NCBI GenBank assembly: GCA_002315875.1
Contig: DCIL01000013.1
Coordinates: forward strand, 3,168 to 67,167
Length of the DNA: 64,000 nucleotides
Direction: 5' to 3'
From: Verrucomicrobia bacterium UBA1727
Lineage (GTDB): Bacteria > Verrucomicrobiota > Kiritimatiellia > RFP12 > UBA1067
The translations under genes and the position numbers were made by a program. How positions within the stretch are numbered: position 1 is the stretch's first letter; each line of letters starts with the position of its first letter. Below, piece by piece: positions 1,204-62,879 of this stretch. The notes beneath the pieces are model-generated. The model was not told the DNA's origin and did not search any database. It saw only the letters and a list, made by a program, of their open reading frames with translations.

Positions 1204-1220
1204 ATTCGTTTTACCTCTTC

Positions 1221-3117: not shown

Positions 3118-3120
3118 AGT

Positions 3121-3160: not shown

Positions 3161-3162
3161 TT

Positions 3163-4161: not shown

Positions 4162-4171
4162 GGCGTGGGAA

Positions 4172-4604: not shown

Positions 4605-4616
4605 TATCTCAAAATA

Positions 4617-9943: not shown

Positions 9944-9962
9944 AGCTTCCGTATAATACCAT

Positions 9963-31151: not shown

Positions 31152-31152
31152 G

Positions 31153-34432: not shown

Positions 34433-34437
34433 GGCAA

Positions 34438-34782: not shown

Positions 34783-34816
34783 TGTTTGTTTTTCCTTTCT
34801 TGTTTTTGTTTTCTCG

Positions 34817-34835
34817 TTTTGGGGACCTCCCAAAA
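34817..34835 (-). other. small hairpin between the two flp genes
   Basis: TTTTGGG-GACCT-CCCAAAA (7-bp stem, 5-nt loop), 14 nt after the short flp stop. No U-run follows on the minus strand, so it is not a classical terminator. Confidence 0.35.
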
Positions 34836-34848
34836 TCGAAATCTTCTT

Positions 34849-35025
34849 TTACGGATAGGGCATCGCCACCACTGAAATGACGCGATGGAAAAACCCTGCC
34901 ATCTCATTGCCGAGATCTCCGAGCTTGCCGTCCGGCGAGACGATGGAGAACGACAGGAGCATCGCCATCGGCACCAGCGAGCAGAGGAGTATCACGTACT
35001 CAAGCATGATAGCGCCTCGTTTCAC
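34849..35025 (-). CDS. flp: canonical Flp-type pilin (58 aa), not in the supplied ORF track
   Basis: Hand translation: GTG(35025) KRGAIMLEYVILLCSLVPMAMLLSFSIVSPDGKLGDLGNEMAGFFHRVISVVAMPYP TAA(34851..34849). G/AIML-EY fits the G/XXXXEY Flp processing motif. The GTG start overlaps the upstream TGA (GTGA). The first in-frame ATG is at 35007. Confidence 0.7.
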   Translation of the reverse strand: MKRGAIMLEYVILLCSLVPMAMLLSFSIVSPDGKLGDLGNEMAGFFHRVISVVAMPYP

Positions 35026-39426: not shown

Positions 39427-39427
39427 T

Positions 39428-42101: not shown

Positions 42102-43666
42102 TTGTCCTCTTCAAACCAGCGCCAGAAATAGAACACCTTGTACCACGGATCCGACTGACGGATACGCTCCTTGACCGCCTTCGGAAGCTCGCGGCTCGCC
42201 GTGCGCTCGAGGTGTCCCGTCTCCTCGCTCGGACGGCGACGGAGCGGATCAAACTCGTCCGCGTATTCCGGCGAAATGAGCACCAGCGTATAATCGTCCG
42301 AGACATTCTCTTGACCATACGAGGTAAACCAGCTGACAATCGGAATGTAGCGAAGAACCGCAAAACCGGAAGGAGGCGTCTCAGTATGACTGACCTTATG
42401 GGAACCGCCAATAGCAATGGTCTCGCCGAGACAGGCGACGACCGGCATGCTGGCCGCTACCTTACTCTGGGTGTAATCGTCCCCCGACGGTTGAGGATTG
42501 CCGGAATCCTCGAGATCAAGATCAAGTTTCACTTCGTCAGCGTGGGTAAGCACGCCCTCGACGGTGATCTTGAAACCATACGAAACCTCCTTGACATTGC
42601 CACCGTTAACACCCGTCACCTTCATCATCAGCGTGCCACCATCTTGAAACGTGGCCTTCGCCGCCTTCTCTCCGTTGGAGTTGAAGGTGACATGACCTGA
42701 CTTGCGATGGGTGGCAAGGCCGTTCGATGCCAGGAAATTGAGCATGCCATTGACGCCGCCAGTAAAGCCCAGACGGGCGGTACGAAGATTCGCATTGCCA
42801 TCGGGATCAGCGTCTCCAAAAATGCGCATCAGCTGCGTCCACATCTCGAAGTTGCCGAGCTCGCCCTTCACCGCACCGGAATTGCCGAAGGCCTCGATGG
42901 CATTTTTGCTGATAGTGAGAAAGACGACGCCGACATCGATGAGACGGTCGACCACGTAGAAGTTGGTGATGCAGGGAACGGACCCGGCGCGGGTATTGCC
43001 GCCGGTCATAGCGAGCCACGTCTGACGGCCGACGATCTTCTCGACTTCGGCGACATCCTTCTTGTTGAAGAAGTAGCCGGTGATCGTCATCACACCGCCG
43101 GCGTACTTCATCTCGATGCAGCCGGGATTATCACTCGTCGCTTCGGTCACCATGCGGTAGCCGCTCTGCTCGAGGATCTTGCCGAACTTGGCGAGCAGAT
43201 CCTTGCCGGGCGTGAAGACGACGTAGTCGAAGCAATACTGCTGATAGCGCGAGAGCACGAGGTGATAGAGATCCCAGTGCTCGGTCTTCGAGATTTCGCC
43301 GCGGAGACAGATCTTGCCGTTGTTGACCATGATCTCGACCTCGGGCACTTCCTCGAGATCGCGACCGAGCGCCTTGATGATCGGCTGCAGGGCGTCCACG
43401 ACCGTCACCGAATAGCTCTTGATGTTGTCAGTGCCCATGAGCTCGACGATCGCCGTGCCGGCGCTCACGCCCATGACGTTGTAGCTCTTGTTGCCGGACC
43501 GGCGGAGCTTGACGCAGGTCGACTCGCAGCGGACTTCCTGAATCGGGAAGGTCGCGGCAACTTCGATCGTATCGCCGATGACGACCGACACCTGCTCCTG
43601 ATCGTCACCCGCGCCCCAGAGGACGGCGCTGGCGGTCATTACGAACAATGCGATGAGTTTCTTCAT
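42098..43666 (-). CDS. cpaC: CpaC/RcpA-type secretin
   Basis: 522 aa. Signal peptide. CpaC-type N-terminal beta domain (VSVVIGDTIEV...YNVMGVSAGTAIVEL). Secretin core (IDVGVVFLTISKNAIEAFG ... GETIAIGGSH ... LRYIPIVSWF). About 60-aa charged/aromatic C-terminal extension. Confidence 0.75.
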   Translation of the reverse strand: MKKLIALFVMTASAVLWGAGDDQEQVSVVIGDTIEVAATFPIQEVRCESTCVKLRRSGNKSYNVMGVSAGTAIVELMGTDNIKSYSVTVVDALQPIIKALGRDLEEVPEVEIMVNNGKICLRGEISKTEHWDLYHLVLSRYQQYCFDYVVFTPGKDLLAKFGKILEQSGYRMVTEATSDNPGCIEMKYAGGVMTITGYFFNKKDVAEVEKIVGRQTWLAMTGGNTRAGSVPCITNFYVVDRLIDVGVVFLTISKNAIEAFGNSGAVKGELGNFEMWTQLMRIFGDADPDGNANLRTARLGFTGGVNGMLNFLASNGLATHRKSGHVTFNSNGEKAAKATFQDGGTLMMKVTGVNGGNVKEVSYGFKITVEGVLTHADEVKLDLDLEDSGNPQPSGDDYTQSKVAASMPVVACLGETIAIGGSHKVSHTETPPSGFAVLRYIPIVSWFTSYGQENVSDDYTLVLISPEYADEFDPLRRRPSEETGHLERTASRELPKAVKERIRQSDPWYKVFYFWRWFEEDK

Positions 43667-43694: not shown

Positions 43695-44456
43695 TTACTT
43701 CAGCGGCACTTCCGGCAGCTCGACCGCCGTCAGGTTCTCGCGCACCTTGCGGAAGGTCGACGAATCGACGACGCCGCCGTCCTTGCGGTTGCGCGCGGTG
43801 CGGTCGTTGCGCTTGCGGAGCACGGGATAGAGCTCTGCCTGCTGCTGGGCCGCGACCAGGATTTCCGCCTGCTGCGGCGGGAGCGCCACGAGAATCGTCG
43901 AGGAGCCGCCGGTCTGGGGCTCGCGGAACTGTCCGTTCGCACCGACGATGCCCATCACGCGCACGCAGGGCATGAGCAGCGTCGTCTGCTTCGTCGCCTC
44001 GCCCATGTCGTCCGTACCCTTGCCGTCCGTCCAGCTCGCAAGAATCGCAATCTCGTCGTCCGGCAGGAGCATGGCGATGAGCGTAGGATTCGCGAACGTC
44101 ACCGGAATCACCCACTCGCCATCGTGAATCGTCTCCGCGAGCGAGGCATTCATGCGCACGTCGCTCACGAGCACGAATTCGTCCATCGCGATCGCGCGCG
44201 GAATGCGCTGACCGTAGGCGATGGCGACCTCGCCCCACTTGAGCGCATTCTTCGGCGCCGCCGCCACCGGAATGACGCGGTAGCTCAAGTCACCTTCGCG
44301 CAACTCCTGCATCGCCACGAGATCGTGGTTAGCGATACAGACCGCCATCATCTCCTCCTGTCCGGCGATTTCCTTGTCGGACAGCATCTTCGAAACGGCG
44401 TAGACCGCCGCGAGGCCCAGAATCACGGCCGCGATGAGCGGCATTGAGTTTTTCAT
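43695..44456 (-). CDS. cpaB: CpaB/RcpC Flp-pilus assembly protein (SAF domain)
   Basis: 253 aa. N-terminal anchor MPLIAAVILGLAAVYAV, SAF-like segment (VCIANHDLVAMQELREGDL), C-terminal TILVALPPQQAEILVAAQQQAELYPVLR typical of CpaB. Confidence 0.75.
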   Translation of the reverse strand: MKNSMPLIAAVILGLAAVYAVSKMLSDKEIAGQEEMMAVCIANHDLVAMQELREGDLSYRVIPVAAAPKNALKWGEVAIAYGQRIPRAIAMDEFVLVSDVRMNASLAETIHDGEWVIPVTFANPTLIAMLLPDDEIAILASWTDGKGTDDMGEATKQTTLLMPCVRVMGIVGANGQFREPQTGGSSTILVALPPQQAEILVAAQQQAELYPVLRKRNDRTARNRKDGGVVDSSTFRKVRENLTAVELPEVPLK

Positions 44457-44459
44457 CTC

Positions 44460-47400
44460 TTACTCCTTAGTTGTATATTCGATGTTGAAATTGTCACCAT
44501 AGAGATAGGAACTGCGTTCGAATCCGACGAGATCGATCGAGCCGAGCTGCGAACTCGTCAGATGGTAGGACTCACCCGCCGCATACGTCTGCGGATTGAG
44601 CGGCGAGTTGGAGATCATGTGGATCTGGTCCAGCGTCGTCGCGTAAGAGTAGTCCGGCACCGTCGGCGTAAGCCCGTCGTTGAGAATCACCCAGACGCCG
44701 TCATGGAAGCCGAAGTGCGGCAGATCGTTGCCTCCGACCGTGCGGAAGGACGCCCACTGCGGATGCTTGTAGCCGGCATTGACATCGATGTCGAGGGTGG
44801 GACCGCCCAAGCTGATCTCGGTATTCGGGAGATAGGAATTCGCCGTGAGATAGATGTTGCCGCCGGCCTCGATGACGCCGCCCATAGTTCCGATCTCACC
44901 GTTCGCGATCACCTTGAGGTTACCACCGGCGGACACATTGCCGCCGCTGCCGACGATCCATCCGCCCTTGGTGCGGTTGATTGAAAGACTGCCCGCCGCA
45001 TTGGCATCCAACCTGCCGGTCGCATTGGCGACGATGGGACTATCCTCCGTGCCGATCGTACCCGCCGTCAACGAGAGATTGCCACGGTCGGCATCGAAGA
45101 CGCTTTCGTAGATCTCGTTCGCATTGACCGCAAGATTGCCGTTGATCGTCGAGGCGCGGCTCTTAGAAAGCTTCGTGGCATTGACATTGAGATCTCCGTC
45201 GGCATTGTCGATCGTGAGCTGATTGTCGTTCACGAGCTCGAGATTGAGATCGCCGTTGTTGAAAAGCGTGACCTTCTCACCTGTGGCCTCGATCTTCGTC
45301 TCTCTGCCGAGATGATTGTCGGCAGCAGTGAGCTCGACGTTGCCCTCGGCGACGATGTAGTTCGGATCCTCCGCAGTGGACGCCGTGACAATGCGATCAT
45401 CGCCGATGATGTCACCCTCGGCTGACACCTTCATCGACTTGACATCGACCTCAGTGAGACGGAGCGCCTGGTCGTTGATAGCCACGAGATCGCCCGCCGC
45501 CGTCGCACCGAGCGACTCGACGTGACCTGCCCTGACCCAGACATTGCCGGAGCCGCCGTTGAGCACCGCGTCCTTGGCGGACAGGGACTCGAAATCAAGT
45601 CCGACAAGCGACGCGAACTGGGCGCTGCCCGCCGTCTCTGCGACGATCGTGGACTGGAAGATGTTGTTCGGATTGTCGAGCTTGATGCTGTCCGTCGCCG
45701 TCACCGTCGCCTTGCCGGCAACCGCAACCGCACCTTCCTGCGAAAGCGCACCGTTCACGCCGATATTCGCGTCTCCGCCGACGATCAGATCGTCCATCAC
45801 GAGATCGCGGTCGTTCTGAATCGTGAAGTTCGCGTGCGCCGCGCCCGCGATCTTGCCGACCGAGCCGTCCGCCACCGTCACCGATGCCCCGCTGTCCTCC
45901 GCCTTGAGCGTAGCGGACTGAGCAACGACGCGATTGAGCGCGGCATCTCCCTCGAAATCGATATTGATCGTATCCTCGGCGGTGAGATTGACCGTCGCCG
46001 CCTTGACTTCGGACTTGCTGCCGGCCTCGCTGCTGATCGACTTGGCCGCAAGTTCGATCGTGCCGTTCTCGCTGTTGGCGATAACATCGGCAATCGTCAG
46101 CGGCACGGTGTTGCCGATCATCACATCACCCTCAGTCGCCTTGGCCGAAGTCACACCATTAAGTTCATTGACTCCCCCGAGATAGACATCGCCCGTCTTC
46201 GCCACGAAGTCCGCCTTCGCCTGCGCGATCACCTTCGAGTCAGCATCCCCGTTGATGCCCTCCAGACCGGTAACCGAAAGATCGCCCGCGACATCGAGCG
46301 TTCCGATATCGAGAAGCTGCACCGCCGTCACATCGAGCTTTCCGGCGTTCTTGACGCTCGTCTTGGCGGCCGTATCGACCGTGAGCGCGAGATCGTTCTT
46401 GTTGACGAGATTGATGTCGTCGCCGGACTTCACGCTCGCCACGGCGCCGAGCTCGTTGTCCTCGTTCGTAAGCTCGACCTTGCCCTCGGCCACGATCTTG
46501 TTGGGATGCGCCTCGGTCGCCTGGGTCTTGACCTTATCAACCCCGGTGAGATCGCCGGCGATGTCGAGCACCATCGAACGCACGTCGATCTCCTTGAGGA
46601 CGAGCGACTTGCCGTTCTCGAAATAAAGATCCGCCGCGGTCGTCGCCGCAAGCGTGTTGACCATTCCGTTCTCCACGACGATATCACCATTGCCGCCGTT
46701 GAGCTGCGCGTTCTCAACATTGAGTCCGTCGAACTTGAGTCCGTTCTCGGAACTGATGTTGAGATCCTTCGCGTTCTCGATGACGATCTTCGATCCGAAG
46801 TGGTTGAAGGGGTTAAGAAGCGTTATGTCTCCCGCCGCTGCAAACGTCGCCGTACCGCCAACCGAGACGCGAGTATCATAAACGAGCGGCTCCTGCTGTG
46901 TGATGTTGCCGTCCGCCCGAATCGCCGCGGTGCCGTTCGCCTCGATATAACCGAGCTCGAGATTCTGGTCGTTCATGAACTCAAAGTTGCGATCCACCTT
47001 GGCGGAAATATTCTTCACCGCACCGTCCGTAACCTTGAGCGAAGAGCCGGCGTCAGTGGCCTCGAACTTCGCATAGTTCGCGACGACATGGTCGAGCGTG
47101 GCATCGCCCTTGAAGTTGATGTCGATGTCCTCCAGCGCCTCGAGATTCGCCGAGCCCGCCGCCATCTTGATCTGCCGTCCGTCGCTCTTGATGTTCTTGG
47201 CGGTTACGTTGAGCGTGCCGTCCCCCGTCTTCGCCATCATGTCACCGAGATGGATGTCACCCTCGTTGTTGATCGCGATGTTGCCGCGCTCCGCCCTGGC
47301 CGCGACAATGCCGGTCATCTCGTTCTTGCCCTGGAGCAGCACGTCGCCGTTGACCGTATTCGCACTGAACGCACCGGTCGTGACCTTCGAGCTCTCGTCG

Positions 47401-50400
47401 CCCACGACTCCGTTCTCCGCGGCAATATCAATTGAATCGGCCTTGAACTGACCGACGTAGAGCTGCTTGCCCGCCACAACCTTGAGATCGCCGGCGATCG
47501 TGGCGTCCACCGTATCCTCGGCGTCGAGACCGAGCGTGACCGAACCGTTGTTGACGATCTTGACCGTCTCACCGGAATCGATGTTGAGACGCTCGCCGAA
47601 GTTGTTCGCCGCGTCGGTCAGAACGACCTTGCCGGAGGCGACGACCTTGTTCGGATTCTCCAGCGTCGATTTATCTGCGGTGAGGACGCCTTCCTGCGTG
47701 ACATCACCCGTGGCCTGGATCTCCATGCGGCCGACGGTGGACTCCTTGAGGACGAGCGACTGATTGTTGATCACCTTCAGATCCGCCTCGGTCTTCGCCT
47801 GAAGGGTGTCCACCAGACCCGAACGCACGAGGATGTTCTTCGTCTTGCCATCGAGCACGGCGTCCACCGCCGTGAGCGAATCGAAGTCGAGGCCTTCCGC
47901 CGCGGTGAACTTCGCCGTGCCGAGCGTTTCCGCGGCAATGCGCGAGCCGAAGTGGTTGTTCTCGTTCACGAGCTCGATACCCTCGGTAGCGACGACCGTG
48001 CTCTTGCCGTTAACCGAGATCTTGTCCGTCTGAGAAAGGACGCCATCAACCGAAACCTTCGCGCTCCCGCCGACCGTGACCGCCCCGAGGGCGAGCGACT
48101 TGTCGTTAGCGAAGTCGAGATTCTTCGAAACCGCGCCCGCGAAGGTCTTGACCGAGCCGTCCGCCACCGTGAGCGACGAGCCGTCGACATCGGTATTGAG
48201 CGTCGCGTTCTGAGCGACGACGCGATTGAGCTTCGCGCTACCCTTGAAGTTGACGGCGATGTCTTCAGCGGCACCGAGATTGACGGACGCGCCAGTCATC
48301 TCGATCTTGCTATCGCCCTCGCTCTTTATAGAATTGGCGGAAACGGTGACCGAGCCCTCGTCCGCATTGGCAATCATATCGCCCACGAGAAGGTCGCCGT
48401 CATTCCTCAGTCCGACGCTGCCCTTCTCGGCCTTGGCGGACGCCACCCCACCGATCTGGTTGGCGCCCGCGAACACGAGGTCGCCCTGCTCGGCCACGGC
48501 GGTGAACGCGCCCGGGGTCGTCACCTTGGAATCGACATCACCGTTAACGCCGTTCTTGGCGTAGATGTCGATGGCGTTCGCGGTAATCTCGCCGACGAGC
48601 AGCTCACTCATCGCCTTGGTCTTGAGATTGCCGGCGACCGTGGCGCTGAAAAGTCCCTCGGCGTCAATCGTCAGATCAAGGTCTTCGCCGTTATGGAGAT
48701 TCACCTCCTTTTCGGAAGTGACGCTTGCTACCTTGAGCTGGTTCTCATCGGACGTGAGCGAGATTGCGCCGGAGGCGACGAGCTTGTTCGGATTCTCCGC
48801 GGTCGCCGCGGTCACGATCTTCTTGTCACCGGTGATCTCGCCTTCGACGCCGAGCTTGAGCGAACCGGCGGTGATCTCGTTAAGCTGAAGATCCTGGCTG
48901 TTCACGGCCTTGAGATTGCCCTTGACCGTGCCTGCGAGGGTGTCAACCTTGCCGTTCCGGACGAGCACATCGCCGTTCTCGCTCGCGACCACCGCGTCCC
49001 GCGCGACGAGCGAGTTGAAATCGAGGCCCTCGCTCGAAGCGAAGCTCGCCTTGGTGGAGGTCTCGGCGACGAGGCGCGAGGCGAAGACGTTCTGCTGGTT
49101 CTCGAGCGTGATGTCGTCCGTCGCCTTGACCGTGGTGAGTCCGCCGACCTTGACCGCGCCGTCCTGAGCGATCTTGCCGTCGACCGTGAGATTGAAATCG
49201 CCCTTCTTCTCCGCAAGGTCGCCGACCGTCACCTCGCCGAGGGTGAGGTTGCGGTTGTTGACGATGGTAAGATTCTTCTTCACCTCGCCCGCGAAGCGTC
49301 CCATCGCGCCGTCCGCCACCGTGATCGACGCGCCCTCGTTCTTGGCGGCGAGCGTCACGTTGTCAGCCGCAACGGTATTGAGATTGCCGTCGCCCTTGAA
49401 CGTGAGGTTGACGTCCGTCGCGCCGAGATTTACGGACGATGCCGTCAGCTCGATCTCGCGATCTTCGCTGACGATGGAATCGGCCATGAGATCGATCGAG
49501 CTTTCCTCGCCCTTTGCGGTGACATCGCCGATTCTGAGCGTATCCGCCGCGACGATGCCGACGCTGCCGGCATCCGCCTGGGCAGTAACGATGCCGGCGA
49601 ACTCATTTGCGCCAGCGAGCATGATGTCGCCGCCGGTCGCCTTCGCGTCGAAGTTGCCGGTGATGATCTTCGAATCGGAGTCGCCCGTAAGACCGTTCGC
49701 CGCTACGACCTTCACGTTGTCGGCCTTCATCTGTCCCACGTTGAGTTCCGTCCCCGCCTTGACGTTCAGGTCGCCGTTGATCTTGGTGCTGAGCGGACCT
49801 TCCGCGTTGATCTCGAGATTGAGCGCGTTGCCGTTGACGAGTGTGACCGCGTCGCCGCCGTCGACCTTGAGCGTATCGCCGAGCACGTTCTCGTCGTTAA
49901 CGAGCGCGATCTCACCGGACGCCTTGAGGCTGTTGGGAGAATCCGCCGTCGCACCGTGCGTCGTGATCTTCGCCGCGCCGTACACCCAGCCCTCGTTCTC
50001 GATCTCAAAGGTCTTCACGTCGAGCTCGCGAAGCGCGAGATTCGTCTGGTTCTTGACCTTGAGCTTGCCGCCGGCCGTGGCCTTGAGCGATTCAACCGAG
50101 CCGTTGTTGATGACGATATCGTTGTCATCGGCGGTGCCCGCGCGCAGATCTGCCGCGGACGCACTGAGCGAGTCGAACTCGAGGCCGCGGTCTTCGGTAG
50201 TGACGAACGTCGCCGCACCGCCGGCCTGGGCGAGGATGCGCGAGCCGAAGTAGTTGTAGGGATTGTCGAGACGGATGTCCTTCGTCGCGGTGAAATTGGC
50301 AGTGCCACCGATGTTGAGCGCGCTTGAGGCGTCCGCATAGCCGCCCTGCGAGATCGTGCCGTCCGCAGAGACCGCAGCATCGCCGCCGACCGAGAAGCTG

Positions 50401-53400
50401 CCGAGGACGACGGACTTGGAGTTCGCGATCGAAAGATCCTTCGCCACGGACACGGCGAGATTGTCGACCGAACCGTTCGCGACCGTGACGGACGCTCCCT
50501 CGTCCGTCACAACGAGATTGGCATTGCGGGCGGCGAGCTCATCCATATTGAGCGTGCCGGCCACATTGAGCGTGACGTCGCCAGGCGCGCCCGCCGAAAC
50601 GCTGGCCGCCGTGAGCGTTACCTTGCCGTCGCTCACCACGTTCGCGCCGCGAAGTCCGATTGAACCCGAAGTGGCGTTCGCGGTCATGTCGCCGATAAGC
50701 AGCGTGCGGCTGTTGATGACGCCGATGTTGCCCTCCTTGGCGGTAGCGGTGACCTTGCCGTAGAGCGCATTGTTCTCGCTCGCGAGATAGACATCGCCCG
50801 ATTTCGCGACCGCATCCAGCGTGCCTTCGGCGCGAACGACCGAATTCTCGTCGCCGTAAAGCCCGGTCTTGCCCTCGAGGCGGACGTTGTAACCGGCGAC
50901 GGATCCGAGCGTGAGTTCCTGTTCTTCGACGCCCACGACGGTGACGTCGCGGAGAGCGTCCTCGGACCCGGCCATCACCGAGACGCGACCGAGATTCCAC
51001 GACTCGCGCGTCTCCTTAGATTGCATCTGATCGAGATCGAGGATGAAGTCGGCGTTGCGCGAGAGGAAGGTCGTGCCGGTATCGGCATCGACGATCGCGT
51101 CCTCACCGAAGCTGATCTTCTGCGAGGCGTCGAGCGTGATGTTGTCGCCGGTGATCTGTCCATCGACCTTGATGTCACCGGTCGTGGCGAGCGTGATGTC
51201 GCCGGCCTTCGCCGTTACGTTATCGACCGTAACGTCGGTGGAGTTGCGGAAGGTCACGCCGTCGCGCGCGTTCGCACCGAAGATCATGACGTCGTGGGAG
51301 GGACCGTTCTCGTTGTCGAGCTTGACCGCGCCCTTCGCGCTGCTTGCCCAGAGCGAGCCCGAGGTGCGGCGCACGTATTCGTCACCGGGAATGCGGTTCT
51401 GGTCGGTGGTGACGATGCGGCGGTTGTTGGAATCGACGCCCTTGGTGCCGTCGAGCTCGACGTCGCCGGCGGTGATGTTGCCTTCCATCACGAGCTTCTT
51501 TTCGGTCGAAACGTAGGCCGTGCCCTGCGCGCGCACCTCGCCGAGACGTCCGGACCAATCGCTCTTGTCCGCCCCCTGGGTGTCGATGACGACGTTGCCC
51601 TTGTCCGCAATCGCAGTGAGCGTGCCCGCGACGAAGGCGGACGACGCCGCAACCGAGATGCTGCCGTTCTTGGACTCGAACTCGACATTGTTGCCCGAGA
51701 CGCGGCGGATGTCGATCGTGCCCCAGTTCTTGAAGTTGAGATCGGCGGTGTCGCTCGCGGCAAGGCGAATCTCGCCAAGAACGTCATTGACCGTCTTCGA
51801 AAATTCGATCGTTGCGTTATCGGCGGCGGCGATGACCGTCGCGTTGCCCTGGGTGCGGATCGCGCTGTTGAGCTTGATCGAGCCCTCGGTTTCGCGAAGG
51901 TAATAGTCGCCCGTCATGATATCACCGCCGAGATCGGTCGCCGTGAGCGTGCCCTCGGTCTTGTTGCCGACGATGGTGAGCCCGCCCGGCGCATCGTAGC
52001 GGAGATCGGCGATGGTCGTGTAGGTGTCTTCGCCGGTCGTTTCGCGAATCGAACTGACGACGAGCGTCTGCGGCGCCTTCACGTAGAACTTCGCATCGTC
52101 CTTAAGCCCGACCGCGAACGTTCCGCCGTCGAGCGAGAGCGTATAGAGCTGCGACGGATCGGTGATATCGCCGGTTTCATAGCCGCCGATGAAGTCACGA
52201 CGCTGCGAGGACTTGCCGCCGGTGTCGAGCGCGAGCGTGTTGGCGTAGAGATCGCCCGCGAGACGGAAGGTCTCGGGATCGAGATAGGCGTTCGCGCGCA
52301 ACTTGATGTCGCCGGCCAAACCGAAGATGGAGTCGACGAAGACATGGTCGTTCTTGCCGAGCGAGACGTTGATGGAATTGTAGAAGCCCATCGTCGAGGC
52401 CTTGATGGTGACCTGATTGTCGGACGTGAGATCGGCGCCGGAGAAGATCAGCGACCGCGAACCGGCATCGATCGTACCCTTGCCGGAAAGCGTGATCGTG
52501 TTCTTCTTGGCCGCGGAAATGATGAGGCCGGTATCAGACGCATCGAGCACCGTCTCAGGCAGGACCACGTTCAGGTCGCCCACGCCCTGCAGCACGACGC
52601 TCGCGCGATTGCCGGTGCGCGAACCGGGCGCGGCGACCTTGAGCGCCATCGACTCGTCGACCGTAAGCGTCGAGCCGAGATTGTAGATACGCATGTACTC
52701 AAGATGCGCCCAGGTGCCGAAGTCGCCGTCGAGATCGGAAAGCTTGTAGTCGCGCTCGCGCATATCCAGGGACATCGCGCGCACGTAGCCGTTGCCGGTC
52801 GAGGTGATCTTGGGCAGCTGATAGGCGTTGGGCTTGCCCTGGTCGTCGAAGCCCTTCGTGAAGTCCGGCAAAACCTGCGAAAGCTCGCCGAAGACGTAGA
52901 GGTCGCCCTCGTGCTCGAGCTCGATGCCCGTATCGTAGGTGGCCGCACCGGTGGACGAGATGATGGCGTTTTCCTCGACCACGAGATCGCCGCTACCGCC
53001 TTGTCTGAGTTTCACGTTGCGCGCGTCGATGTTGATACGGTTGTCACCGGCATCGTCAAAGCGCTGGCCAATCACGAGATCGCCGCGGGACAGATTCTCG
53101 AGCGCGACCTGTCCATTCTCGGCCGCAATCTGGAAGTCACCGTTGAACGCCATGCCGTTCAAGGTCCTGATCGAGATGTCACCGGTTTCAGCGGCAATAC
53201 CGCGATTTTCGCCGACCGGATTCGCGGTAAACGAGTTGGCGTAGACCGACACGTTTTCGCCGGCCACGATGCTGCCGCGAAGATCAACCGAGACCGTCGG
53301 AGCACTGACCGAAATGCTGCCGCCCGCATTGAGAATGCCGAGCCGACCGTTCCAGCCGTTGATCGCCCCCTGCATCTCGATATCGCCGTTTTCGGCCGAA

Positions 53401-54821
53401 AGCGAGAGAGTGCCACTGGAGCCCATGGAGATCGTCTGCCGGCCGCTGTGGGCGGACGGATTGAAGATGAGCGAACCCTTGTACTCCGCAAGCGTAATGC
53501 TCTTCGCGGACTTGATGACGTAATCGTTATCGGAAATGCCCTCGCCGCCCAAAGCCACCGAACCTTCGTCAGAGGTGACCTTTACACCGCCCAGGAAACG
53601 GTTGCCTGCTGCCGAAAGCGAGACCGACCCCTTGGCATGAGCTTCAATCATACCCTCGGCACCGAGCGAACCTGAATCCGACAGCGTAATCGTACCTTTG
53701 GTAGCGGTGATGTAGGCAGTTGCCAACGATGAATTGTAGAACTTGGTCTTGCCGGTAAGCTCAATATTGCCATTAAGCGCCTTGATTACGATTTCCGGCG
53801 AGGTCACCGTTCCTTCGGCAATGGAAAGGTCGCCGACGACCATGTTATCCGCCGCCACGATCTTGGCACCGCTCGCAAAGTATCCGGAGACTTCCAGATC
53901 CTCCAGGAACTTGCCTTCCTTCACGTCCATGTAGTTGAGAAAACCGATATTCCTCTCCGGATCATCTTTGCTGCCATTATGAATATAGGAGGCAACGGTC
54001 ACCAGGTTGCCATTGCCAACGTAGGTCGGGCTGTTCACATGGCCAAAGGACTCGATCTTGTTGCCCACGAGCGCAAGACCAGTCACACTCATGCCAACCT
54101 CGGAATCGATGTAGATGCCTTTACCTTCTACGCCGTCAGTCGAAAAGCTCGCCGACCAATGGCTGGAGACATCAAGCGGGGTCGCCGCGGCAAGTCCGAG
54201 ATATCCATTTAGGTCGACCGCTGCGCCGCTCGTAAAGGAGATACCCGAAGGATTGATGATCCAGACATTGACCTTGGAAGCATGGAGGTTCGGTAAATTG
54301 CCTTGTTGAAAAATCATCGAGAGGTCGGTGGCGGCACCCGTGACTGCAGTGCTCATCGAATTGCCGATGAAACCAGAAATAGTCGTTGGCGTTCCGCCGT
54401 CGACGATATTGTAGATCGTGCCGCCGCTCTCGCCGACTAAATTACAAAAAATCAACTGTTTATCTTGATCTACACTGAGTTTTGACCACTTTACGACACC
54501 AGGTCGGTCATTGTTGATCAGTTCAACTATAGTGGTCTTCTCAAGCTCTTCAAGGCCGAGCTTGATGCCAACCATAGAGGTAAAGAACTCCGCCGCCTTA
54601 AGAAGGCCCGGTGCATTAGGATCCATGACGGTGGCGTTACTCGCCTCGCGAAAGAGATTGCCGTCGCATGCGTTCTTGCCATTACTCGATATTGCAACCT
54701 CGGCTTTCTCGTACCATTCTGGAGCTTTTCCAAAGGCCGGGGTGATTGAGCCGAACGCGGCAATGAGCGCTACGGTCAGACGGACAGGTTTCGGGAAAAC
54801 GTTTCTTAACATGACATGCAC
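44460..54821 (-). CDS. giant (3453 aa) two-partner-secretion exoprotein (TpsA, FhaB/filamentous-hemagglutinin type)
   Basis: Signal peptide, then a TPS secretion domain (VVKWSKLSVDQDKQLIF...TIYNIVDGGTPTTISGFIG...VWIINPSGISFTSGAAVDLNGYLGLAAATP). Long beta-helical repeats, including 5 tandem units of about 384 aa. Non-repetitive C-terminus of about 250 aa. Confidence 0.8.
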   Translation of the reverse strand: MHVMLRNVFPKPVRLTVALIAAFGSITPAFGKAPEWYEKAEVAISSNGKNACDGNLFREASNATVMDPNAPGLLKAAEFFTSMVGIKLGLEELEKTTIVELINNDRPGVVKWSKLSVDQDKQLIFCNLVGESGGTIYNIVDGGTPTTISGFIGNSMSTAVTGAATDLSMIFQQGNLPNLHASKVNVWIINPSGISFTSGAAVDLNGYLGLAAATPLDVSSHWSASFSTDGVEGKGIYIDSEVGMSVTGLALVGNKIESFGHVNSPTYVGNGNLVTVASYIHNGSKDDPERNIGFLNYMDVKEGKFLEDLEVSGYFASGAKIVAADNMVVGDLSIAEGTVTSPEIVIKALNGNIELTGKTKFYNSSLATAYITATKGTITLSDSGSLGAEGMIEAHAKGSVSLSAAGNRFLGGVKVTSDEGSVALGGEGISDNDYVIKSAKSITLAEYKGSLIFNPSAHSGRQTISMGSSGTLSLSAENGDIEMQGAINGWNGRLGILNAGGSISVSAPTVSVDLRGSIVAGENVSVYANSFTANPVGENRGIAAETGDISIRTLNGMAFNGDFQIAAENGQVALENLSRGDLVIGQRFDDAGDNRINIDARNVKLRQGGSGDLVVEENAIISSTGAATYDTGIELEHEGDLYVFGELSQVLPDFTKGFDDQGKPNAYQLPKITSTGNGYVRAMSLDMRERDYKLSDLDGDFGTWAHLEYMRIYNLGSTLTVDESMALKVAAPGSRTGNRASVVLQGVGDLNVVLPETVLDASDTGLIISAAKKNTITLSGKGTIDAGSRSLIFSGADLTSDNQVTIKASTMGFYNSINVSLGKNDHVFVDSIFGLAGDIKLRANAYLDPETFRLAGDLYANTLALDTGGKSSQRRDFIGGYETGDITDPSQLYTLSLDGGTFAVGLKDDAKFYVKAPQTLVVSSIRETTGEDTYTTIADLRYDAPGGLTIVGNKTEGTLTATDLGGDIMTGDYYLRETEGSIKLNSAIRTQGNATVIAAADNATIEFSKTVNDVLGEIRLAASDTADLNFKNWGTIDIRRVSGNNVEFESKNGSISVAASSAFVAGTLTAIADKGNVVIDTQGADKSDWSGRLGEVRAQGTAYVSTEKKLVMEGNITAGDVELDGTKGVDSNNRRIVTTDQNRIPGDEYVRRTSGSLWASSAKGAVKLDNENGPSHDVMIFGANARDGVTFRNSTDVTVDNVTAKAGDITLATTGDIKVDGQITGDNITLDASQKISFGEDAIVDADTGTTFLSRNADFILDLDQMQSKETRESWNLGRVSVMAGSEDALRDVTVVGVEEQELTLGSVAGYNVRLEGKTGLYGDENSVVRAEGTLDAVAKSGDVYLASENNALYGKVTATAKEGNIGVINSRTLLIGDMTANATSGSIGLRGANVVSDGKVTLTAASVSAGAPGDVTLNVAGTLNMDELAARNANLVVTDEGASVTVANGSVDNLAVSVAKDLSIANSKSVVLGSFSVGGDAAVSADGTISQGGYADASSALNIGGTANFTATKDIRLDNPYNYFGSRILAQAGGAATFVTTEDRGLEFDSLSASAADLRAGTADDNDIVINNGSVESLKATAGGKLKVKNQTNLALRELDVKTFEIENEGWVYGAAKITTHGATADSPNSLKASGEIALVNDENVLGDTLKVDGGDAVTLVNGNALNLEINAEGPLSTKINGDLNVKAGTELNVGQMKADNVKVVAANGLTGDSDSKIITGNFDAKATGGDIMLAGANEFAGIVTAQADAGSVGIVAADTLRIGDVTAKGEESSIDLMADSIVSEDREIELTASSVNLGATDVNLTFKGDGNLNTVAADNVTLAAKNEGASITVADGAMGRFAGEVKKNLTIVNNRNLTLGEVTVGDLAEKKGDFNLTVDGKIAQDGAVKVGGLTTVKATDDITLENQQNVFASRLVAETSTKASFASSEGLDFNSLVARDAVVASENGDVLVRNGKVDTLAGTVKGNLKAVNSQDLQLNEITAGSLKLGVEGEITGDKKIVTAATAENPNKLVASGAISLTSDENQLKVASVTSEKEVNLHNGEDLDLTIDAEGLFSATVAGNLKTKAMSELLVGEITANAIDIYAKNGVNGDVDSKVTTPGAFTAVAEQGDLVFAGANQIGGVASAKAEKGSVGLRNDGDLLVGDMIANADEGSVTVSANSIKSEGDSKIEMTGASVNLGAAEDIAVNFKGSAKLNRVVAQNATLNTDVDGSSLTVADGSVKTFAGAVSKNLDFANDKSLALGAVTVGGSAKVSVDGVLSQTDKISVNGKSTVVATEGIELVNENNHFGSRIAAETLGTAKFTAAEGLDFDSLTAVDAVLDGKTKNILVRSGLVDTLQAKTEADLKVINNQSLVLKESTVGRMEIQATGDVTQEGVLTADKSTLENPNKVVASGKVVLTDAANNFGERLNIDSGETVKIVNNGSVTLGLDAEDTVDATIAGDLKVVAGKQLYVGQFKADSIDIAAENGVVGDESSKVTTGAFSANTVNGDVLLQGKNEMTGIVAARAERGNIAINNEGDIHLGDMMAKTGDGTLNVTAKNIKSDGRQIKMAAGSANLEALEDIDINFKGDATLDHVVANYAKFEATDAGSSLKVTDGAVKNISAKVDRNFEFMNDQNLELGYIEANGTAAIRADGNITQQEPLVYDTRVSVGGTATFAAAGDITLLNPFNHFGSKIVIENAKDLNISSENGLKFDGLNVENAQLNGGNGDIVVENGMVNTLAATTAADLYFENGKSLVLKEIDVRSMVLDIAGDLTGVDKVKTQATEAHPNKIVAEGKVELTNEDNELGAVASVKSGDDINLVNKNDLALTVDTAAKTSVKNAGKLDVTAVQLLDIGTLDVAGDLSVTGLEGINGDADSKVIAQAKADFVAKTGDVYLGGVNELNGVTSAKATEGDVMIGNTVPLTIADVIANSENGTIELAAKSISSEAGSKSEVKAATVNLTAEDTINIDFEGDAALNRVVAQSATLKAEDSGASVTVADGSVGKIAGAAHANFTIQNDRDLVMDDLIVGGDANIGVNGALSQEGAVAVAGKATVTATDSIKLDNPNNIFQSTIVAETAGSAQFASLVGLDFESLSAKDAVLNGGSGNVWVRAGHVESLGATAAGDLVAINDQALRLTEVDVKSMKVSAEGDIIGDDRIVTASTAEDPNYIVAEGNVELTAADNHLGRETKIEATGEKVTLFNNGDLNLELVNDNQLTIDNADGDLNVNATKLSKSRASTINGNLAVNANEIYESVFDADRGNLSLTAGTIGTEDSPIVANATGRLDANAAGSLSINRTKGGWIVGSGGNVSAGGNLKVIANGEIGTMGGVIEAGGNIYLTANSYLPNTEISLGGPTLDIDVNAGYKHPQWASFRTVGGNDLPHFGFHDGVWVILNDGLTPTVPDYSYATTLDQIHMISNSPLNPQTYAAGESYHLTSSQLGSIDLVGFERSSYLYGDNFNIEYTTKE
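45000..50760 (-). repeat. five tandem, diverged ~1.15 kb (~384 aa) coding repeats inside the TpsA gene (boundaries approximate)
   Basis: Recurrent landmarks at about 50.70-50.75, 49.52-49.58, 48.37-48.43, 47.23-47.30 and 46.09-46.14 kb (x-G-[NS]-[IV]-G-[IV]...L-[LR]-[IV]-GD[MV]-[TI]-A) and five [EDH]-[NS]-PN-[KSY] landmarks. Copies are similar at protein level, not identical at DNA level. Confidence 0.8.
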
Positions 54822-54830
54822 TCCTTTCCC

Positions 54831-56792
54831 TTAGAACTGCATCCTGGTTGAAAGATAGAACTCGAAGTCGCGATCCTGATCGTCAAGATACGCCTTGCGA
54901 AGCGGAATCGCGAAGTCGGCGCCGAGCGTGAAGTAGCGCGTGAGCGAGAACCTGAGACCGAGACCGCAGGAAGCGAGCCACTCGTCATCAAGATAATAGC
55001 TGGCCAGATATTCGGTGCTGTTGTAGCGCATCCAGCCGGCATCGACGAACGCGATGAACTGCCAACGCGAGATCGGCAGGCAGTTCTTGCGATCCATGAA
55101 GAGCTTCAGCACCGGATCCGTCCAGATCGGCGTGCGGAACTCGATCGTGCCGTTGAAGCCCCAGTCGCCCTGGTAACCGCGGGTGCGGTAACCGCGGACT
55201 GTATCGTGGCCGCCGAGCGTAAGCTTTTCGGACGAGGTAAGCGTCTGGTCGGTCCAGCTGCCGTGAATCTTGCCGAAGACGGTCCACTTCTGCCACTCGG
55301 GTACGTCCGTCGAAAGAACATCGGTGATGGCCTGAAGGCGGGCGACGTTGAACGAGACGACGTAATACTTATCCTCGGCACCGTAAACGTAGTCGGAAAG
55401 TCGGTTGCCGCTGTGGTAGCAGTTGAAGAGGAACTGCGCATCGGCCCAGAGACGACCGCCGGCCTGATCGGCCTTCTTGTCGGCGTATACGAGCCCGATC
55501 GTCGCCGGCAGCGTGCGCGCCGCACGCTGATACTGAGTCAGGTCGGAGATGTCAAAACGATCCCTCGACTCGCGGAACATCACGCCCGCATCGATGGAGA
55601 CCGTGCGCCGATCGCTGTCGTAGAGATTGACCGAGAGCTTGGTGCCGGCGAACCAGCCCTTGCCGATGAGGTCAAAGTCGGTCAGCACCTCTTCGTTCTT
55701 GAGATCGGAGTAACCGCCGTAGAAGTTGAGGTAGCCGCCGCGCCAGAAGGTGAACGGCAGCAGGTAGCCGCCCGAGATCCACCAGAGATCAGCGTTCTGG
55801 CTCAAGCCGGGCGAAACCGTCAAGATGTCATCGTGCTTCGTGAGGTTCGTCAGCTGCAACGCCCCGGTGAACTGCCATTCGCCGATCTCGTGCATGCCGT
55901 AGTTGTTGACCTCGACATTGCCATGAATCGGAATCGAGTCGTCGACATTGAGCACGATGTCGCCGATCTTCGTGTCTTCGCCGCGAACCTCGACACCCGC
56001 ATGGACACGGTAGTCGGGATGGTTGTTCAACGCGCGCATCGTATCGTTGATCGCCTCCACCCGGAAGACATCGCCCTTCTTGATGCCCTTGATCTTCTTC
56101 ACGACCTGCTCGTTGGAGTGGAACCAGCTGTTGGTCTCGCCGCCGAAATGGACGATCACATCACCGAAGCGACCGGGATCGACCTTGATCGTATACTGGC
56201 CGTTGCGCGAATTGTAGGCGTTATCATCGGCCGTCACCGTCGCGAGCGGATACCCAAGCCGCACCACCGCCGCCTGCGCCTCCTTCAAAAGCCGCGGCTC
56301 GCTCTCTTCGTTGAGCACCACGCCGCGGAAGATCGGATCGAGCAACGAGAAGACATCGTGCTCATCGCAGAACTCCTCATCGCCGCGAAGACGGATGCGC
56401 TTGATGACGCCGCCGGGATTAGGAATCCAACGCGAGGGACGACGCGACATCGCCACCCCGTCGGACGGCTTGGAGGACGCCTGACGCACCTTGAGCTCGC
56501 GGCGGGTCATGAAGTCGACAGAAACCGTCACCGTGCCCGAAGCGCTCGCCGTAGGCACGAACGCCAGCTTGACCGAATAGCCCTTCTGATCGAGCTCGAC
56601 CGCCAGCTCGCCGACGATCTTCTCGACCTCGACGGCAATGAGATCCTTGCCGACGATGCGCTCGGTCAGCATCGTGCGTACACGACGCTTCTCCTGAACG
56701 GACGCCGTGCCTACCGTCTTGACGCGGTCGATGCCCTGCGCGAACACCGACCCCGCCAGCAGCAGGCAAAATAGTATCGCTAAGCGTTTCAT
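54831..56792 (-). CDS. TpsB outer-membrane transporter (ShlB/FhaC/HecB family, POTRA + barrel)
   Basis: 653 aa. Signal peptide MKRLAILFCLLLAGSVFAQG, POTRA-like N-region, Omp85-type barrel with a terminal ...YLSTRMQF. Located immediately upstream of the TpsA gene (9-nt gap). Confidence 0.75.
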   Translation of the reverse strand: MKRLAILFCLLLAGSVFAQGIDRVKTVGTASVQEKRRVRTMLTERIVGKDLIAVEVEKIVGELAVELDQKGYSVKLAFVPTASASGTVTVSVDFMTRRELKVRQASSKPSDGVAMSRRPSRWIPNPGGVIKRIRLRGDEEFCDEHDVFSLLDPIFRGVVLNEESEPRLLKEAQAAVVRLGYPLATVTADDNAYNSRNGQYTIKVDPGRFGDVIVHFGGETNSWFHSNEQVVKKIKGIKKGDVFRVEAINDTMRALNNHPDYRVHAGVEVRGEDTKIGDIVLNVDDSIPIHGNVEVNNYGMHEIGEWQFTGALQLTNLTKHDDILTVSPGLSQNADLWWISGGYLLPFTFWRGGYLNFYGGYSDLKNEEVLTDFDLIGKGWFAGTKLSVNLYDSDRRTVSIDAGVMFRESRDRFDISDLTQYQRAARTLPATIGLVYADKKADQAGGRLWADAQFLFNCYHSGNRLSDYVYGAEDKYYVVSFNVARLQAITDVLSTDVPEWQKWTVFGKIHGSWTDQTLTSSEKLTLGGHDTVRGYRTRGYQGDWGFNGTIEFRTPIWTDPVLKLFMDRKNCLPISRWQFIAFVDAGWMRYNSTEYLASYYLDDEWLASCGLGLRFSLTRYFTLGADFAIPLRKAYLDDQDRDFEFYLSTRMQF

Positions 56793-57406
56793 TTCTTCTT
56801 CACATCCTTCCTGACGGACTCGTTCTTGATGCCGGTCTGGATGATCGACTTGGTCTTCACGTCAAAGGTGTAGTTGCCGCGCTCATCGAGATGGAAGCGC
56901 TCGCGCAGCGCCTTGTCCGCATCGCGCGCAAGCTGCCCGCGCTCGGAAATAAGCCCTTCGAGAACCTGCTGCTGAATCGCATAGCGCAAGCGCTTGGTAA
57001 TGAGATCCAGCGCCGGCTTCGCCTCTTCCTCGCTCTTGAACTTGAGGTGCTTGAGCCGCTTGTTCTCGCCCTTCCAGGTCTTCTCCTCCAGAAGCTGGTA
57101 GATCGTCATATCCTCGTTGTCGAAGACATACTGCTGGCGCTGAAGGATGCGGTAGTCCTTCACCAACCGCTCGTTGACGTTCGAAAGCGCAATCCGCTTC
57201 TCCCACTCAAGCCGCGCCGCCACCGTCGCGTCTTCCAGCGCGCGCTGACGAACGAGCGTCATCGAGACGAAATACTCGGTATTCGTCTCGTCCAGTTTGG
57301 CAATCACCTTCGGAAACTCCGACTTCGCCGCCTTGTCCGCAGGCGCGGCACAAGCAACCATGGGCAGAATTCCACAAAGAACCACCATCAACTTACGAAC
57401 TTTCAT
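56789..57406 (-). CDS. putative lipoprotein, coiled-coil, function unknown (first gene of the TPS/Tad operon)
   Basis: 205 aa. Signal/lipobox-like LPMVAC, helical charged body. AGGGAG Shine-Dalgarno 5 nt upstream (57412..57417). 4-nt overlap with the tpsB start. Confidence 0.55.
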   Translation of the reverse strand: MKVRKLMVVLCGILPMVACAAPADKAAKSEFPKVIAKLDETNTEYFVSMTLVRQRALEDATVAARLEWEKRIALSNVNERLVKDYRILQRQQYVFDNEDMTIYQLLEEKTWKGENKRLKHLKFKSEEEAKPALDLITKRLRYAIQQQVLEGLISERGQLARDADKALRERFHLDERGNYTFDVKTKSIIQTGIKNESVRKDVKKK

Positions 57407-57441: not shown

Positions 57442-57450
57442 ATTTTACCA
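57442..57450 (-). promoter_or_regulatory. extended -10 element TGGTAAAAT (putative promoter of the TPS/Tad operon)
   Basis: Minus strand TGGTAAAAT, 21 nt downstream of the palindrome. If the TSS is about 7 nt past the hexamer, the palindrome centre is near -41.5. Confidence 0.4.
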
Positions 57451-57468: not shown

Positions 57469-57484
57469 TGTGCTAATTATCACA
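57469..57484 (-). promoter_or_regulatory. CRP/FNR-type palindrome TGTGA-N6-GCACA (putative binding site of the adjacent Crp/Fnr regulator)
   Basis: Minus strand reads TGTGATAATTAGCACA (plus strand TGTGCTAATTATCACA), 9 of 10 half-site positions matching TGTGA-N6-TCACA. It abuts the crp-like stop codon and lies upstream of the 57406 start. Confidence 0.5.
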
Positions 57485-58159
57485 TTATCGTAAAATCGTA
57501 AACACGTCACGGTCGTAGGAAAAATGCCCGGACTTCGCCAGCTGACGCAAGCAACGCGCCAACGCTGAGCGACTCACCCCAAGGTAATCAGCGAATTCAC
57601 TCTCGGTCGAGCCGATGGCGAACGTCTTGGTGCCCTCCTGCCGACAACGATTCTGTAAGTAAAGAAGAACTCGGTCTTCGATCTTTGGACAACTCAAGAT
57701 GGCGATCTTGCGCCAAGCCGCCTGCAGCTCCTCACGGACGACACACGATAAATTATCGTATAGACGCCCCCCCCCATTTTTCACGCATTTATACAATGCG
57801 GAAAGGGGAAGAGAGGCGAGAACGCAATCGCCATGAGCCGCAACGAGCGCAGGATACGCCGAAATCGGCTGCGACGCACCGACGAGCGAGGCCCCGATGA
57901 CACCGCCGGGATGGACAATGCGCACCAAATGACGCTTGCCCTTGAAGGCAGAATCGTAGACATGGAGATTGCCGGAAAGGAGTATGCCCATTTGAGTAGA
58001 AGGTCTCAACTCGTCTGCCAAGACATTACCGTCACTGAACTCCATACGGTGCACGCCAAGCTGTTTCACCATTTTCTCGGCCTCAGACCGGGAAAAACCA
58101 CTGAATAACGCCGACGAACAAATCGTCTGCAGCTCATTGTCTGTGAATTCCTCTGCCAT
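57485..58159 (-). CDS. Crp/Fnr-family transcriptional regulator
   Basis: 224 aa. cNMP-binding-type beta-roll (GNVLADELRP...GILLSGNLHVY...LVRIVHPGGVIG) and C-terminal HTH (ESEFADYLGVSRSALARCLRQLAKSGH). Confidence 0.8.
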   Translation of the reverse strand: MAEEFTDNELQTICSSALFSGFSRSEAEKMVKQLGVHRMEFSDGNVLADELRPSTQMGILLSGNLHVYDSAFKGKRHLVRIVHPGGVIGASLVGASQPISAYPALVAAHGDCVLASLPLSALYKCVKNGGGRLYDNLSCVVREELQAAWRKIAILSCPKIEDRVLLYLQNRCRQEGTKTFAIGSTESEFADYLGVSRSALARCLRQLAKSGHFSYDRDVFTILR

Positions 58160-61977: not shown

Positions 61978-61978
61978 A

Positions 61979-62869: not shown

Positions 62870-62879
62870 AAGCTCTCCT

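Follow-up and report, generated by a model that had tools for sequence, protein, structure and literature searches.

Two-partner secretion genes directly upstream of cpaB in the Tad pilus gene cluster of a metagenomic contig

Two-partner secretion (TPS) exoproteins and Tad pili are among the main bacterial attachment tools and are treated as separate systems. In a 64,000-nucleotide stretch from Verrucomicrobia bacterium UBA1727 (contig DCIL01000013.1; hereafter the window), which lies within a JGI metagenome contig of 92.7 kb, a TPS transporter gene (tpsB) and a giant exoprotein gene (tpsA) lie immediately ahead of cpaB, the first gene of a Tad pilus module. Relatives of its CpaB protein (37 homologues found) place the organism among Lentisphaeria/Victivallales. 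Full-text searches of the searchable literature turned up neither an account of TPS genes located within a tad/cpa operon nor work on the Tad systems of Lentisphaerae.

A precedent for joining the two kinds of genes exists in Bordetella, where the fhaB/fimABCD/fhaC operon combines the TPS adhesin FHA (a protein distinct from the FHA domain discussed below) with fimbrial biogenesis genes (PMC11019879); the initial annotation of the window overlooked it in describing TPS systems as normally autonomous. In Bordetella, as we infer for the window, TPS and pilus-assembly genes stand under one operon and regulator, which brings about joint expression of a pilus and a filamentous TpsA adhesin (PMC11019879). 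The Bordetella fimbria, however, is of the chaperone–usher type, with its genes placed between fhaB and fhaC, whereas the window carries a Tad/Flp (type IVc) system in which tpsB and tpsA are followed by the Tad genes, with putative translational coupling between tpsA and cpaB.

Classical TPS systems (FhaB/FhaC, ShlA/ShlB, HMW1/HMW1B) share with the window pair an Omp85-family transporter bearing the motifs VRGY and FxDxG beside a very large exoprotein, which is Cys-poor, rich in Gly, Ala, Thr, Asn, and Asp, and equipped with a signal peptide and TPS motifs (in the window, NPSGI for NPNGI). They differ in that the window exoprotein combines a divergent, sub-threshold TPS domain with DUF5649 repeats and a C-terminal domain without a family match, and in that the window pair is not autonomous: a co-oriented lipoprotein gene precedes it and a pilus operon follows. 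Canonical Tad/Flp systems (Aggregatibacter tad, Caulobacter cpa) likewise comprise CpaB/RcpC, a secretin, a TadA-type ATPase, TadB/C, Flp-like pilins, a prepilin peptidase, and TadE/TadG-like pseudopilins. The window module departs from them in its FHA-fused ATPase, in that TadZ/CpaE, RcpB, and TadD are not detected in it, in the position of its pilin genes downstream of the machinery, and in the TPS cassette at the head of the operon. An FHA-fused ATPase and further FHA proteins are reported features of the Myxococcus Kil system (PMC8460266).

We interpret lipoprotein–tpsB–tpsA as a TPS cassette that heads the Tad operon as an accessory adhesin unit, shares with the pilus genes one transcript from a CRP-type promoter, and is tied to them by translational coupling; we assign this reading a probability of roughly 0.6. 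Judged from sequence, the parts are of known and ordinary kinds, drawn from the TPS, Tad/Flp, and Crp families; the novelty is the gene neighborhood with its conserved coupling junction. All operon genes are on the minus strand in the order lipoprotein, tpsB, tpsA, cpaB, as read from the open reading frame (ORF) list and translations. The elements from the regulator gene to the first Tad gene, with lengths in nucleotides (nt) or amino acids (aa), are as follows:

57485..58159, minus strand: Crp/Fnr-family regulator gene (Pfam cNMP_binding 33.6 bits, HTH_Crp_2 29.9 bits), directly upstream of the putative operon promoter region.
57469..57484, minus strand: CRP-type palindrome TGTGATAATTAGCACA, beginning right after the stop codon of the crp-family gene.
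57442..57449, minus strand: extended −10-like element TGgTAAAAT, a candidate read from the sequence of the 78-nt intergenic region.
56789..57406, minus strand: first operon gene, encoding a 205-aa predicted lipoprotein (signal peptide ...LPMVAC).
54831..56792, minus strand: tpsB, Omp85-family TPS transporter, 653 aa (Pfam ShlB and Omp85).
44460..54812, minus strand: tpsA, 3450-aa secreted repeat exoprotein (DUF5649 and a divergent TPS domain).
44457..44467, minus strand: putative coupling junction, AAGGAG, TAA, and spacer GAG, directly upstream of the cpaB ATG.
43695..44456, minus strand: cpaB (RcpC/CpaB), first Tad gene (TIGR03177 and Pfam RcpC).

The lipoprotein stop and the tpsB start overlap by 4 nt (ATGA), tpsB and tpsA are separated by 18 nt, and spacing along the operon runs from −4 to +28 nt through the gene for an 802-aa FHA protein and stays at or below 66 nt down to tadE. 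The ORF list and sequence bear out the ORF positions, the 3-nt tpsA–cpaB gap, and the 4-nt tpsB/lipoprotein overlap given in the initial annotation; its placement of the TPS genes, downstream of a promoter-like region at ~57.44 kb and ahead of the Tad genes, agrees with the extended −10-like element and the tight packing on one strand. For TpsA, which it had given as 3453 aa, the location of the ORF stands and the length does not: the giant ORF is listed as 44460-54821, but the GTG at 54821 sits within an AAGGAG ribosome-binding site, and translation likely begins at the ATG at 54812, which yields 3450 aa and matches the gene call on the source contig.

The tpsA–cpaB junction reads ...ACT AAG GAG TAA gag ATG, with the tpsA stop at 44460-44462, the spacer at 44457-44459, and the cpaB ATG at 44454-44456. 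The ribosome-binding site of cpaB, AAGGAG, is the last two tpsA codons (Lys-Glu), and a 3-nt spacer leads to the ATG. This start is genuine, because residues M1-K2-N3 of CpaB show no or almost no variation across 20 aligned homologues. In a sister species represented by loci L176 and L177 (CpaB 76% identical), the junction is built as in the window (protein end ...EYTTKE followed by the stop; DNA AAGGAG TAA nnn ATG), and the spacer alone differs (ACC). The last six tpsA codons and the junction are thus kept between window and L176 despite 34% identity of the TpsA proteins. CpaB is found in identical form on contigs from three further samples, and two of these contigs include the giant upstream gene. 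Samples with this organism are JGI 3300001598 and 3300020112, SRR5323921, and SRR1221442. Because several samples assembled the arrangement independently, and because L176/L177 share the junction, it is not an assembly artifact.

No minus-strand terminator-like site was found at the tpsA–cpaB junction in a sequence scan; since the genes are also tightly packed on one strand, co-transcription is the simplest reading. The initial annotation had asked whether an internal promoter precedes cpaB, and its expectation of a through-running transcript fits the scan: no promoter-like site lies near the tpsA 3′ end, and the nearest minus-strand match is 2.4 kb upstream of cpaB under a sigma-70 consensus that may not apply to Lentisphaeria. 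When the tpsA 3′ ends of window and L176 were aligned, nothing was kept beyond protein motifs, and no promoter-like motif was seen. The further claim of "stoichiometric" coupling is not a consequence of shared transcription, which together with the junction suggests only co-expression and cpaB–tpsA translational coupling.

The putative promoter lies in the 78-nt gap ahead of the lipoprotein gene, which follows the Crp-family regulator gene, whose own promoter-like site is at 58199-58171. The palindrome TGTGATAATTAGCACA is the sole match to TGTGA-N6-KCACA in the window, over the whole of which 0.2 matches would be expected by chance. Its center is ~41.5 nt upstream of the putative transcription start implied by TGgTAAAAT. 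A CRP-like box at this class-II-like distance suggests, by analogy, control by the neighboring Crp-family regulator. We also considered whether a CRP-type promoter is common to TPS-less relatives and rejected this: a comparable box occurs in 0 of 164 related loci within 600 nt upstream of cpaB. The 205-aa lipoprotein encoded directly behind the putative promoter has no match in Pfam or NCBIfam.

TpsB clearly belongs to the ShlB/FhaC family by its sequence. It matches Pfam ShlB (PF03865) at 76.9 bits over residues 278-614 (cut-off 22.7) and Omp85 at 36.2 bits, with POTRA matches just under cut-off (POTRA_2 21.4 bits against 24; POTRA 19.0 bits against 21.3). Omp85 proteins have a conserved loop-6 motif (V/I)RG(Y/F) and a barrel motif (F/G)xDxG, and TpsB shows both, as VRGY (residue 532) and FVDAG (residue 582). 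A profile search of Protein Data Bank (PDB) sequences with TpsB gave no meaningful match.

TpsA consists of a signal peptide, a divergent TPS domain (~residues 100-330), DUF5649 repeats, and a conserved ~150-aa C-terminal domain, in that order. It starts with a Sec signal peptide (N-terminus MLRNVFPKPVRLTVALIAAFGSITPAFG), is Cys-poor, and is rich in G/A/V/T/D/S/N. DUF5649, which in the searchable literature is named in one paper only, on fibrillar adhesins (PMC8286594), matches at 142.9 bits over six stretches (Pfam). Within the first 400 aa, the TPS family PF05860 is the one Pfam family matched. In a three-way alignment, TpsA VNVWIINPSGISF lines up with NVYIVNPAGVLF of the canonical TPS domain, with NPSGI replacing NPNGI, and VVKWSKLSV and YNIVDGGTPTTISG line up with the upstream TPS motifs. 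An exhaustive HMMER search with TpsA residues 1-420 against 1.84 billion representatives yielded one true, full-length homologue, P0038, which is the TpsA of L176/L177 and is 34% identical to the window protein and colinear with it across 3,400 aa; the remaining hits were repeat noise, such as a BspA-type LRR protein. P0038 independently matches PF05860 at 27.6 bits (E 3.5e-6), also below threshold. An hhalign comparison of a two-sequence TpsA profile with the full-scoring TPS domain of a distant relative, L144, gave a probability of 70.8% over the NPxG core. Word-index protein searches returned nothing, whether the query was the first 450 or the last 800 aa of TpsA; in that index the 90%-identity cluster of TpsA is represented by a 40-aa fragment, and the search is blind to TpsA for that reason.

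Taken together with the clear identity of TpsB, these observations uphold the assignment of the two genes as a TPS pair. The N-terminus of TpsA is probably a divergent TPS domain, a call that draws on converging, individually weak lines of sequence evidence. The expectation that it would score as a TPS domain is borne out in part, by the sub-threshold matches, the aligned motifs, and hhalign, while the score itself stays below the Pfam gathering value, as detailed where the alternatives are weighed. The order tpsB then giant tpsA also recalls CdiB/CdiA/CdiI, the contact-dependent inhibition system. A CdiBAI reading was rejected: unlike in those systems, TpsA has no VENN, ELYN, or related pretoxin motif, its C-terminus is conserved and not polymorphic, and the next gene is cpaB and not a small immunity gene.

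Comparative context came from ~170 loci of this Tad family: gene tables from eight look-ups, to which GTDB species genomes and metagenomes added 80 loci each. A TPS exoprotein lies upstream of cpaB in four lineages (the window, L176/L177, L006, and L144), and the TPS–cpaB adjacency that had been noted in the window is conserved in L176, L006, and L144; all carriers found are known only from metagenomes. L176 comes from contig Ga0207380_10278868, which extends ~4.2 kb further upstream, and L006 from contig Ga0207380_11589887, whose bases 1-5704 precede the locus. Between window and L176, identity is 67-81% for the core Tad proteins, 44-47% for the two accessory proteins, and 34% for TpsA, the fastest-evolving gene of this comparison. 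In L006 (CpaB 50% identical), the gene ahead of cpaB encodes 3429 aa with a precomputed Pfam match to TPS and stops 74 nt upstream of cpaB. L144, an AT-rich contig of a distant Lentisphaeria member (CpaB 41% identical), has the order promoter region, tpsB, tpsA, TRL-family lipoprotein, cpaB; its TpsB matches ShlB at 54.4 bits, and its TpsA, of 1024 aa, has DUF5649 and a TPS domain scoring 82.1 bits against the cut-off of 33.5. DUF5649 repeats are common to the TpsA proteins of the window, L144, and L006.

A neighbor-joining tree of CpaB (250 aa, no support values) unites window, L176, and L006 in one clade beside the Victivallis group and places L144 far off among TPS-less loci. Taken at face value, the tree implies two or more origins of the arrangement, or an old origin followed by many losses. 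No additional TPS genes turned up when all other loci were screened with BLAST and phmmer. In Victivallis-type loci, the slot upstream of cpaB holds a non-coding region and unrelated or divergent genes, and in ~37 loci it holds a Ser/Thr kinase gene, often with a PP2C phosphatase gene before it. Large ORFs upstream of cpaB elsewhere (650-680 aa, then 1,000-2,400 aa) were considered as TPS pairs and rejected, as Pfam identifies them as PP2C phosphatases and Ser/Thr kinases. Slot kinases (L014, L047, L054, L061, L065, L075, and ~30 further loci) are 880-2400 aa long, some with several kinase domains or Sel1 repeats. Judged by these sequence assignments, kinase and PP2C genes in the slot suggest phospho-signaling to the FHA domains of the Tad machine.

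Two minor observations concern the same slot. In L006, a tandem array of AGGTTGA (6.7 copies, 95% matches) occupies positions 9926-9972 within the 74-nt TpsA–cpaB spacer and could be a slippage-prone, phase-variable element; no DNA tandem repeats were found in the window locus. In L181-L183, positions 1-2409 encode at least 800 C-terminal residues of a G/A/V/T/D-rich, β-helix-like repeat protein that ends 91 nt upstream of cpaB (34% identical), with its N-terminus off the contig; by sequence, these loci may represent a fifth TPS–Tad lineage.

Under the favored reading of a co-expressed cassette, transcription would start at the CRP-type promoter just downstream of the Crp-family gene, and the transcript would extend from lipoprotein–tpsB–tpsA into cpaB–secretin–FHA::cpaF–tadBC–...–flp–tadV–tadE/G. 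TpsA would be exported by Sec, recognized by TpsB through its divergent TPS domain, and passed to the cell surface, where it would form a very long β-helix-type fiber with DUF5649 repeats. Ribosomes ending tpsA would stop 3 nt before the cpaB start, on the ribosome-binding site made of the last two tpsA codons. Because of ribosome termination at that site, synthesis of CpaB, and probably of the downstream gene products, would require that the 10.4-kb tpsA be transcribed and translated in full. The net result would be a giant adhesin-like fiber and a pilus produced together under one signal.

The pilus module that would be served by this transcript has CpaB/RcpC, a secretin, a TadA-type ATPase, TadB, TadC, Flp-type pilins, a prepilin peptidase, and TadE/F pseudopilins. 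CpaB scores 76.2 bits against TIGR03177 (cut-off 71) and 31.7 bits against Pfam RcpC. Downstream of cpaB, the genes are:

42098..43666, minus strand: Tad secretin (CpaC/RcpA-like), 522 aa (Pfam Secretin 34.5 bits).
40353..42098, minus strand: FHA-domain::CpaF/TadA ATPase fusion, 581 aa in the contig gene call (Pfam FHA 58.5 bits, T2SSE 217.4 bits).
38641..40345, minus strand: tadB and tadC platform genes (Pfam T2SSF 47.3 and 52.7 bits).
35022..38638, minus strand: 402-aa protein without known function and 802-aa FHA-domain protein (35022-37430; FHA 67.2 bits).
33282..35007, minus strand: two Flp-like pilin genes (52 and 114 aa), an A24 prepilin peptidase, and tadE (precomputed Peptidase_A24 and TadE matches; TadE 34.4 bits).
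30396..33285, minus strand: TadG-like pseudopilin (710 aa; Pfam Tad 24.7 bits) and TadE-like 251-aa protein.

The genes at 30396..33285 are probably the end of the tightly packed array, and a 346-nt gap follows. By inspection only, the 52-aa and 114-aa proteins have an ..EYVI.. motif in a hydrophobic N-terminus. Pfam did not detect the N-terminal secretin domain in the secretin at 42098..43666. The scanned proteins between 30396 and 57406 contained no ParA/CpaE-type match that would indicate TadZ/CpaE, and the secretin gene adjoins the FHA::ATPase gene. The order CpaB–secretin–FHA::ATPase–TadB–TadC–unknown–FHA protein–Flp is conserved across loci of the family, and the genes for the 402-aa protein and the 802-aa FHA protein are syntenic in relatives L007-L015 and L176.

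This module resembles the Kil system of Myxococcus xanthus, which carries out contact-dependent prey killing, in the N-terminal FHA domain fused to a Tad-type ATPase, the extra FHA proteins (here 802 aa), and several conserved genes without known function; further likenesses are that no TadZ is detected here and that Ser/Thr kinase and phosphatase genes occur in loci related to that of the window (PMC8460266). It differs in its host and setting (Lentisphaerota, gut), in being one gene cluster where Kil has two, and in its TPS partner, none being reported for Kil. The FHA-fused Tad family is widespread among gut and rumen Lentisphaeria, Kiritimatiellae, and Verrucomicrobia metagenome-assembled genomes.

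The C-terminal domain of TpsA is among the best-conserved parts of the protein. It spans ~150 aa within residues ~3250-3450 (window 44460-45070), with the motifs PQW..FRTVGG, HDGVWV, LGSIDLVG, and a final EYTTKE, and is common to three long and otherwise very divergent cpaB-adjacent TpsA proteins, those of the window, P0038, and L006. Over the C-terminal 150 aa, window and P0038 are 51% identical, against ~31% at the N-terminus. The domain is absent from the L144 TpsA and has no match in Pfam or PDB. A metagenome scan with its alignment returned no relatives, from a collection that seemingly lacks the source contigs.

Several points weigh against an adhesin unit co-expressed with the pilus. 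The PF05860 match of TpsA scores 25.3 bits (E 1.7e-5; positions 77-178 of the 252-position profile) and misses the gathering score of 33.5; a profile search of PDB sequences with the TPS region gave no match to solved TpsA structures; and AlphaFold2 models of the N-terminus reached a pLDDT of 33.4 from one sequence and 35.0 from two, which makes them unusable. The role as an adhesin is suggested by family resemblance only. An internal promoter may lie within the tpsA 3′ end, as a sigma-70 consensus scan may not suit Lentisphaeria. Finally, ~165 of the ~170 related Tad loci have no TPS pair; because most lack it, the Tad machine evidently works without one, and the link could be regulatory only, or neutral. 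The TPS-related points, together with ~100 residues between signal peptide and TPS motifs, an unusual spacing, would fit a large repeat protein that uses another export route and merely lies beside an Omp85-family gene. We consider this very improbable: tpsA, with its Sec signal peptide, follows an ShlB-family gene at 18 nt, three TPS motifs align with the canonical domain, P0038 gives a sub-threshold TPS match of its own, DUF5649 repeats recur in proteins with full-scoring TPS domains, and TpsA yielded no match to a C-terminal barrel, RTX, or sorting-signal family.

It is also conceivable, though unlikely, that the TPS cassette merely hitch-hikes, having landed in a permissive slot where it uses the local promoter, with an exoprotein functionally unrelated to the pilus and with Tad genes that may be driven by an internal tpsA promoter. 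The variability of the slot, which is empty or unrelated in Victivallis-type loci, filled with PP2C and kinase genes in ~37, and occupied by a TPS pair in only a few, suits such a history, as does the far faster evolution of TpsA relative to the Tad proteins. It suits less well the recurrence of the layout, with TpsA proteins that differ greatly (3450, 3380, 3429, and 1024 aa), in two or more distinct branches of the CpaB tree, the retention of a 3-nt junction with an embedded ribosome-binding site although 66% of TpsA positions differ, and the lack of a conserved promoter-like motif in the aligned tpsA 3′ ends. Physical or functional integration goes further than the favored cassette reading and is doubtful to a greater degree: TpsA would be a dedicated partner or component of a Kil-like, contact-dependent Tad machine controlled by FHA domains and Ser/Thr kinases. 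The prodomain of FhaB is periplasmic, and by analogy the C-terminal domain of TpsA might stay in the periplasm, where it might bind CpaB or the secretin, or act as a gate for assembly of the pilus; alternatively, the fiber might capture a target for the pilus. Conservation of this domain among the three long TpsA proteins speaks for integration, as do the FHA-fused ATPase and the second FHA protein, which are reported hallmarks of Kil (PMC8460266). Against it, most family members have no TpsA, the L144 TpsA lacks the domain, and the domain matches nothing in the two databases searched.

If lipoprotein–tpsB–tpsA and the Tad genes form one transcription unit, as proposed, the recurrence of this layout in separate Lentisphaeria lineages suggests selection for joint production of giant fiber and pilus. 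The comparison also defines an FHA-fused, Kil-like Tad family in gut bacteria of the Planctomycetes–Verrucomicrobia–Chlamydiae (PVC) group, in which the slot upstream of cpaB takes either signaling genes (PP2C and Ser/Thr kinase) or a TPS cassette; the slot contents are concrete candidates for the trigger and partners of such Tad machines. The TPS–Tad layout would gain importance if integration with a Kil-like contact-dependent machine were true: fiber and pilus would together make up a composite contact-dependent apparatus that serves in adhesion or in attacking neighboring cells, and tpsA–cpaB coupling would let the machine be built only after the fiber is fully made.

The surroundings of the operon add further genes. 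A second giant secreted protein (window 21878-30049, minus strand, 2723 aa), encoded 346 nt past the TadE/TadG genes, has a signal peptide, a Gly-rich N-terminal region, and a weak Flg_new repeat. After its gene come a T2SSE-type ATPase (20744-21820), a metallophosphoesterase/LTD protein (18684-20741), and a Ser/Thr kinase (16792-17805). On the other side, a second Tad module without FHA (window 58245-63626, continuing at positions 1-8548 of L001) encodes CpaB, a secretin, an ATPase, two T2SSF proteins, and three proteins of unknown function. This FHA-less module lies immediately upstream on the same strand, so that the contig carries tandem Tad systems with the Crp-family gene in between.

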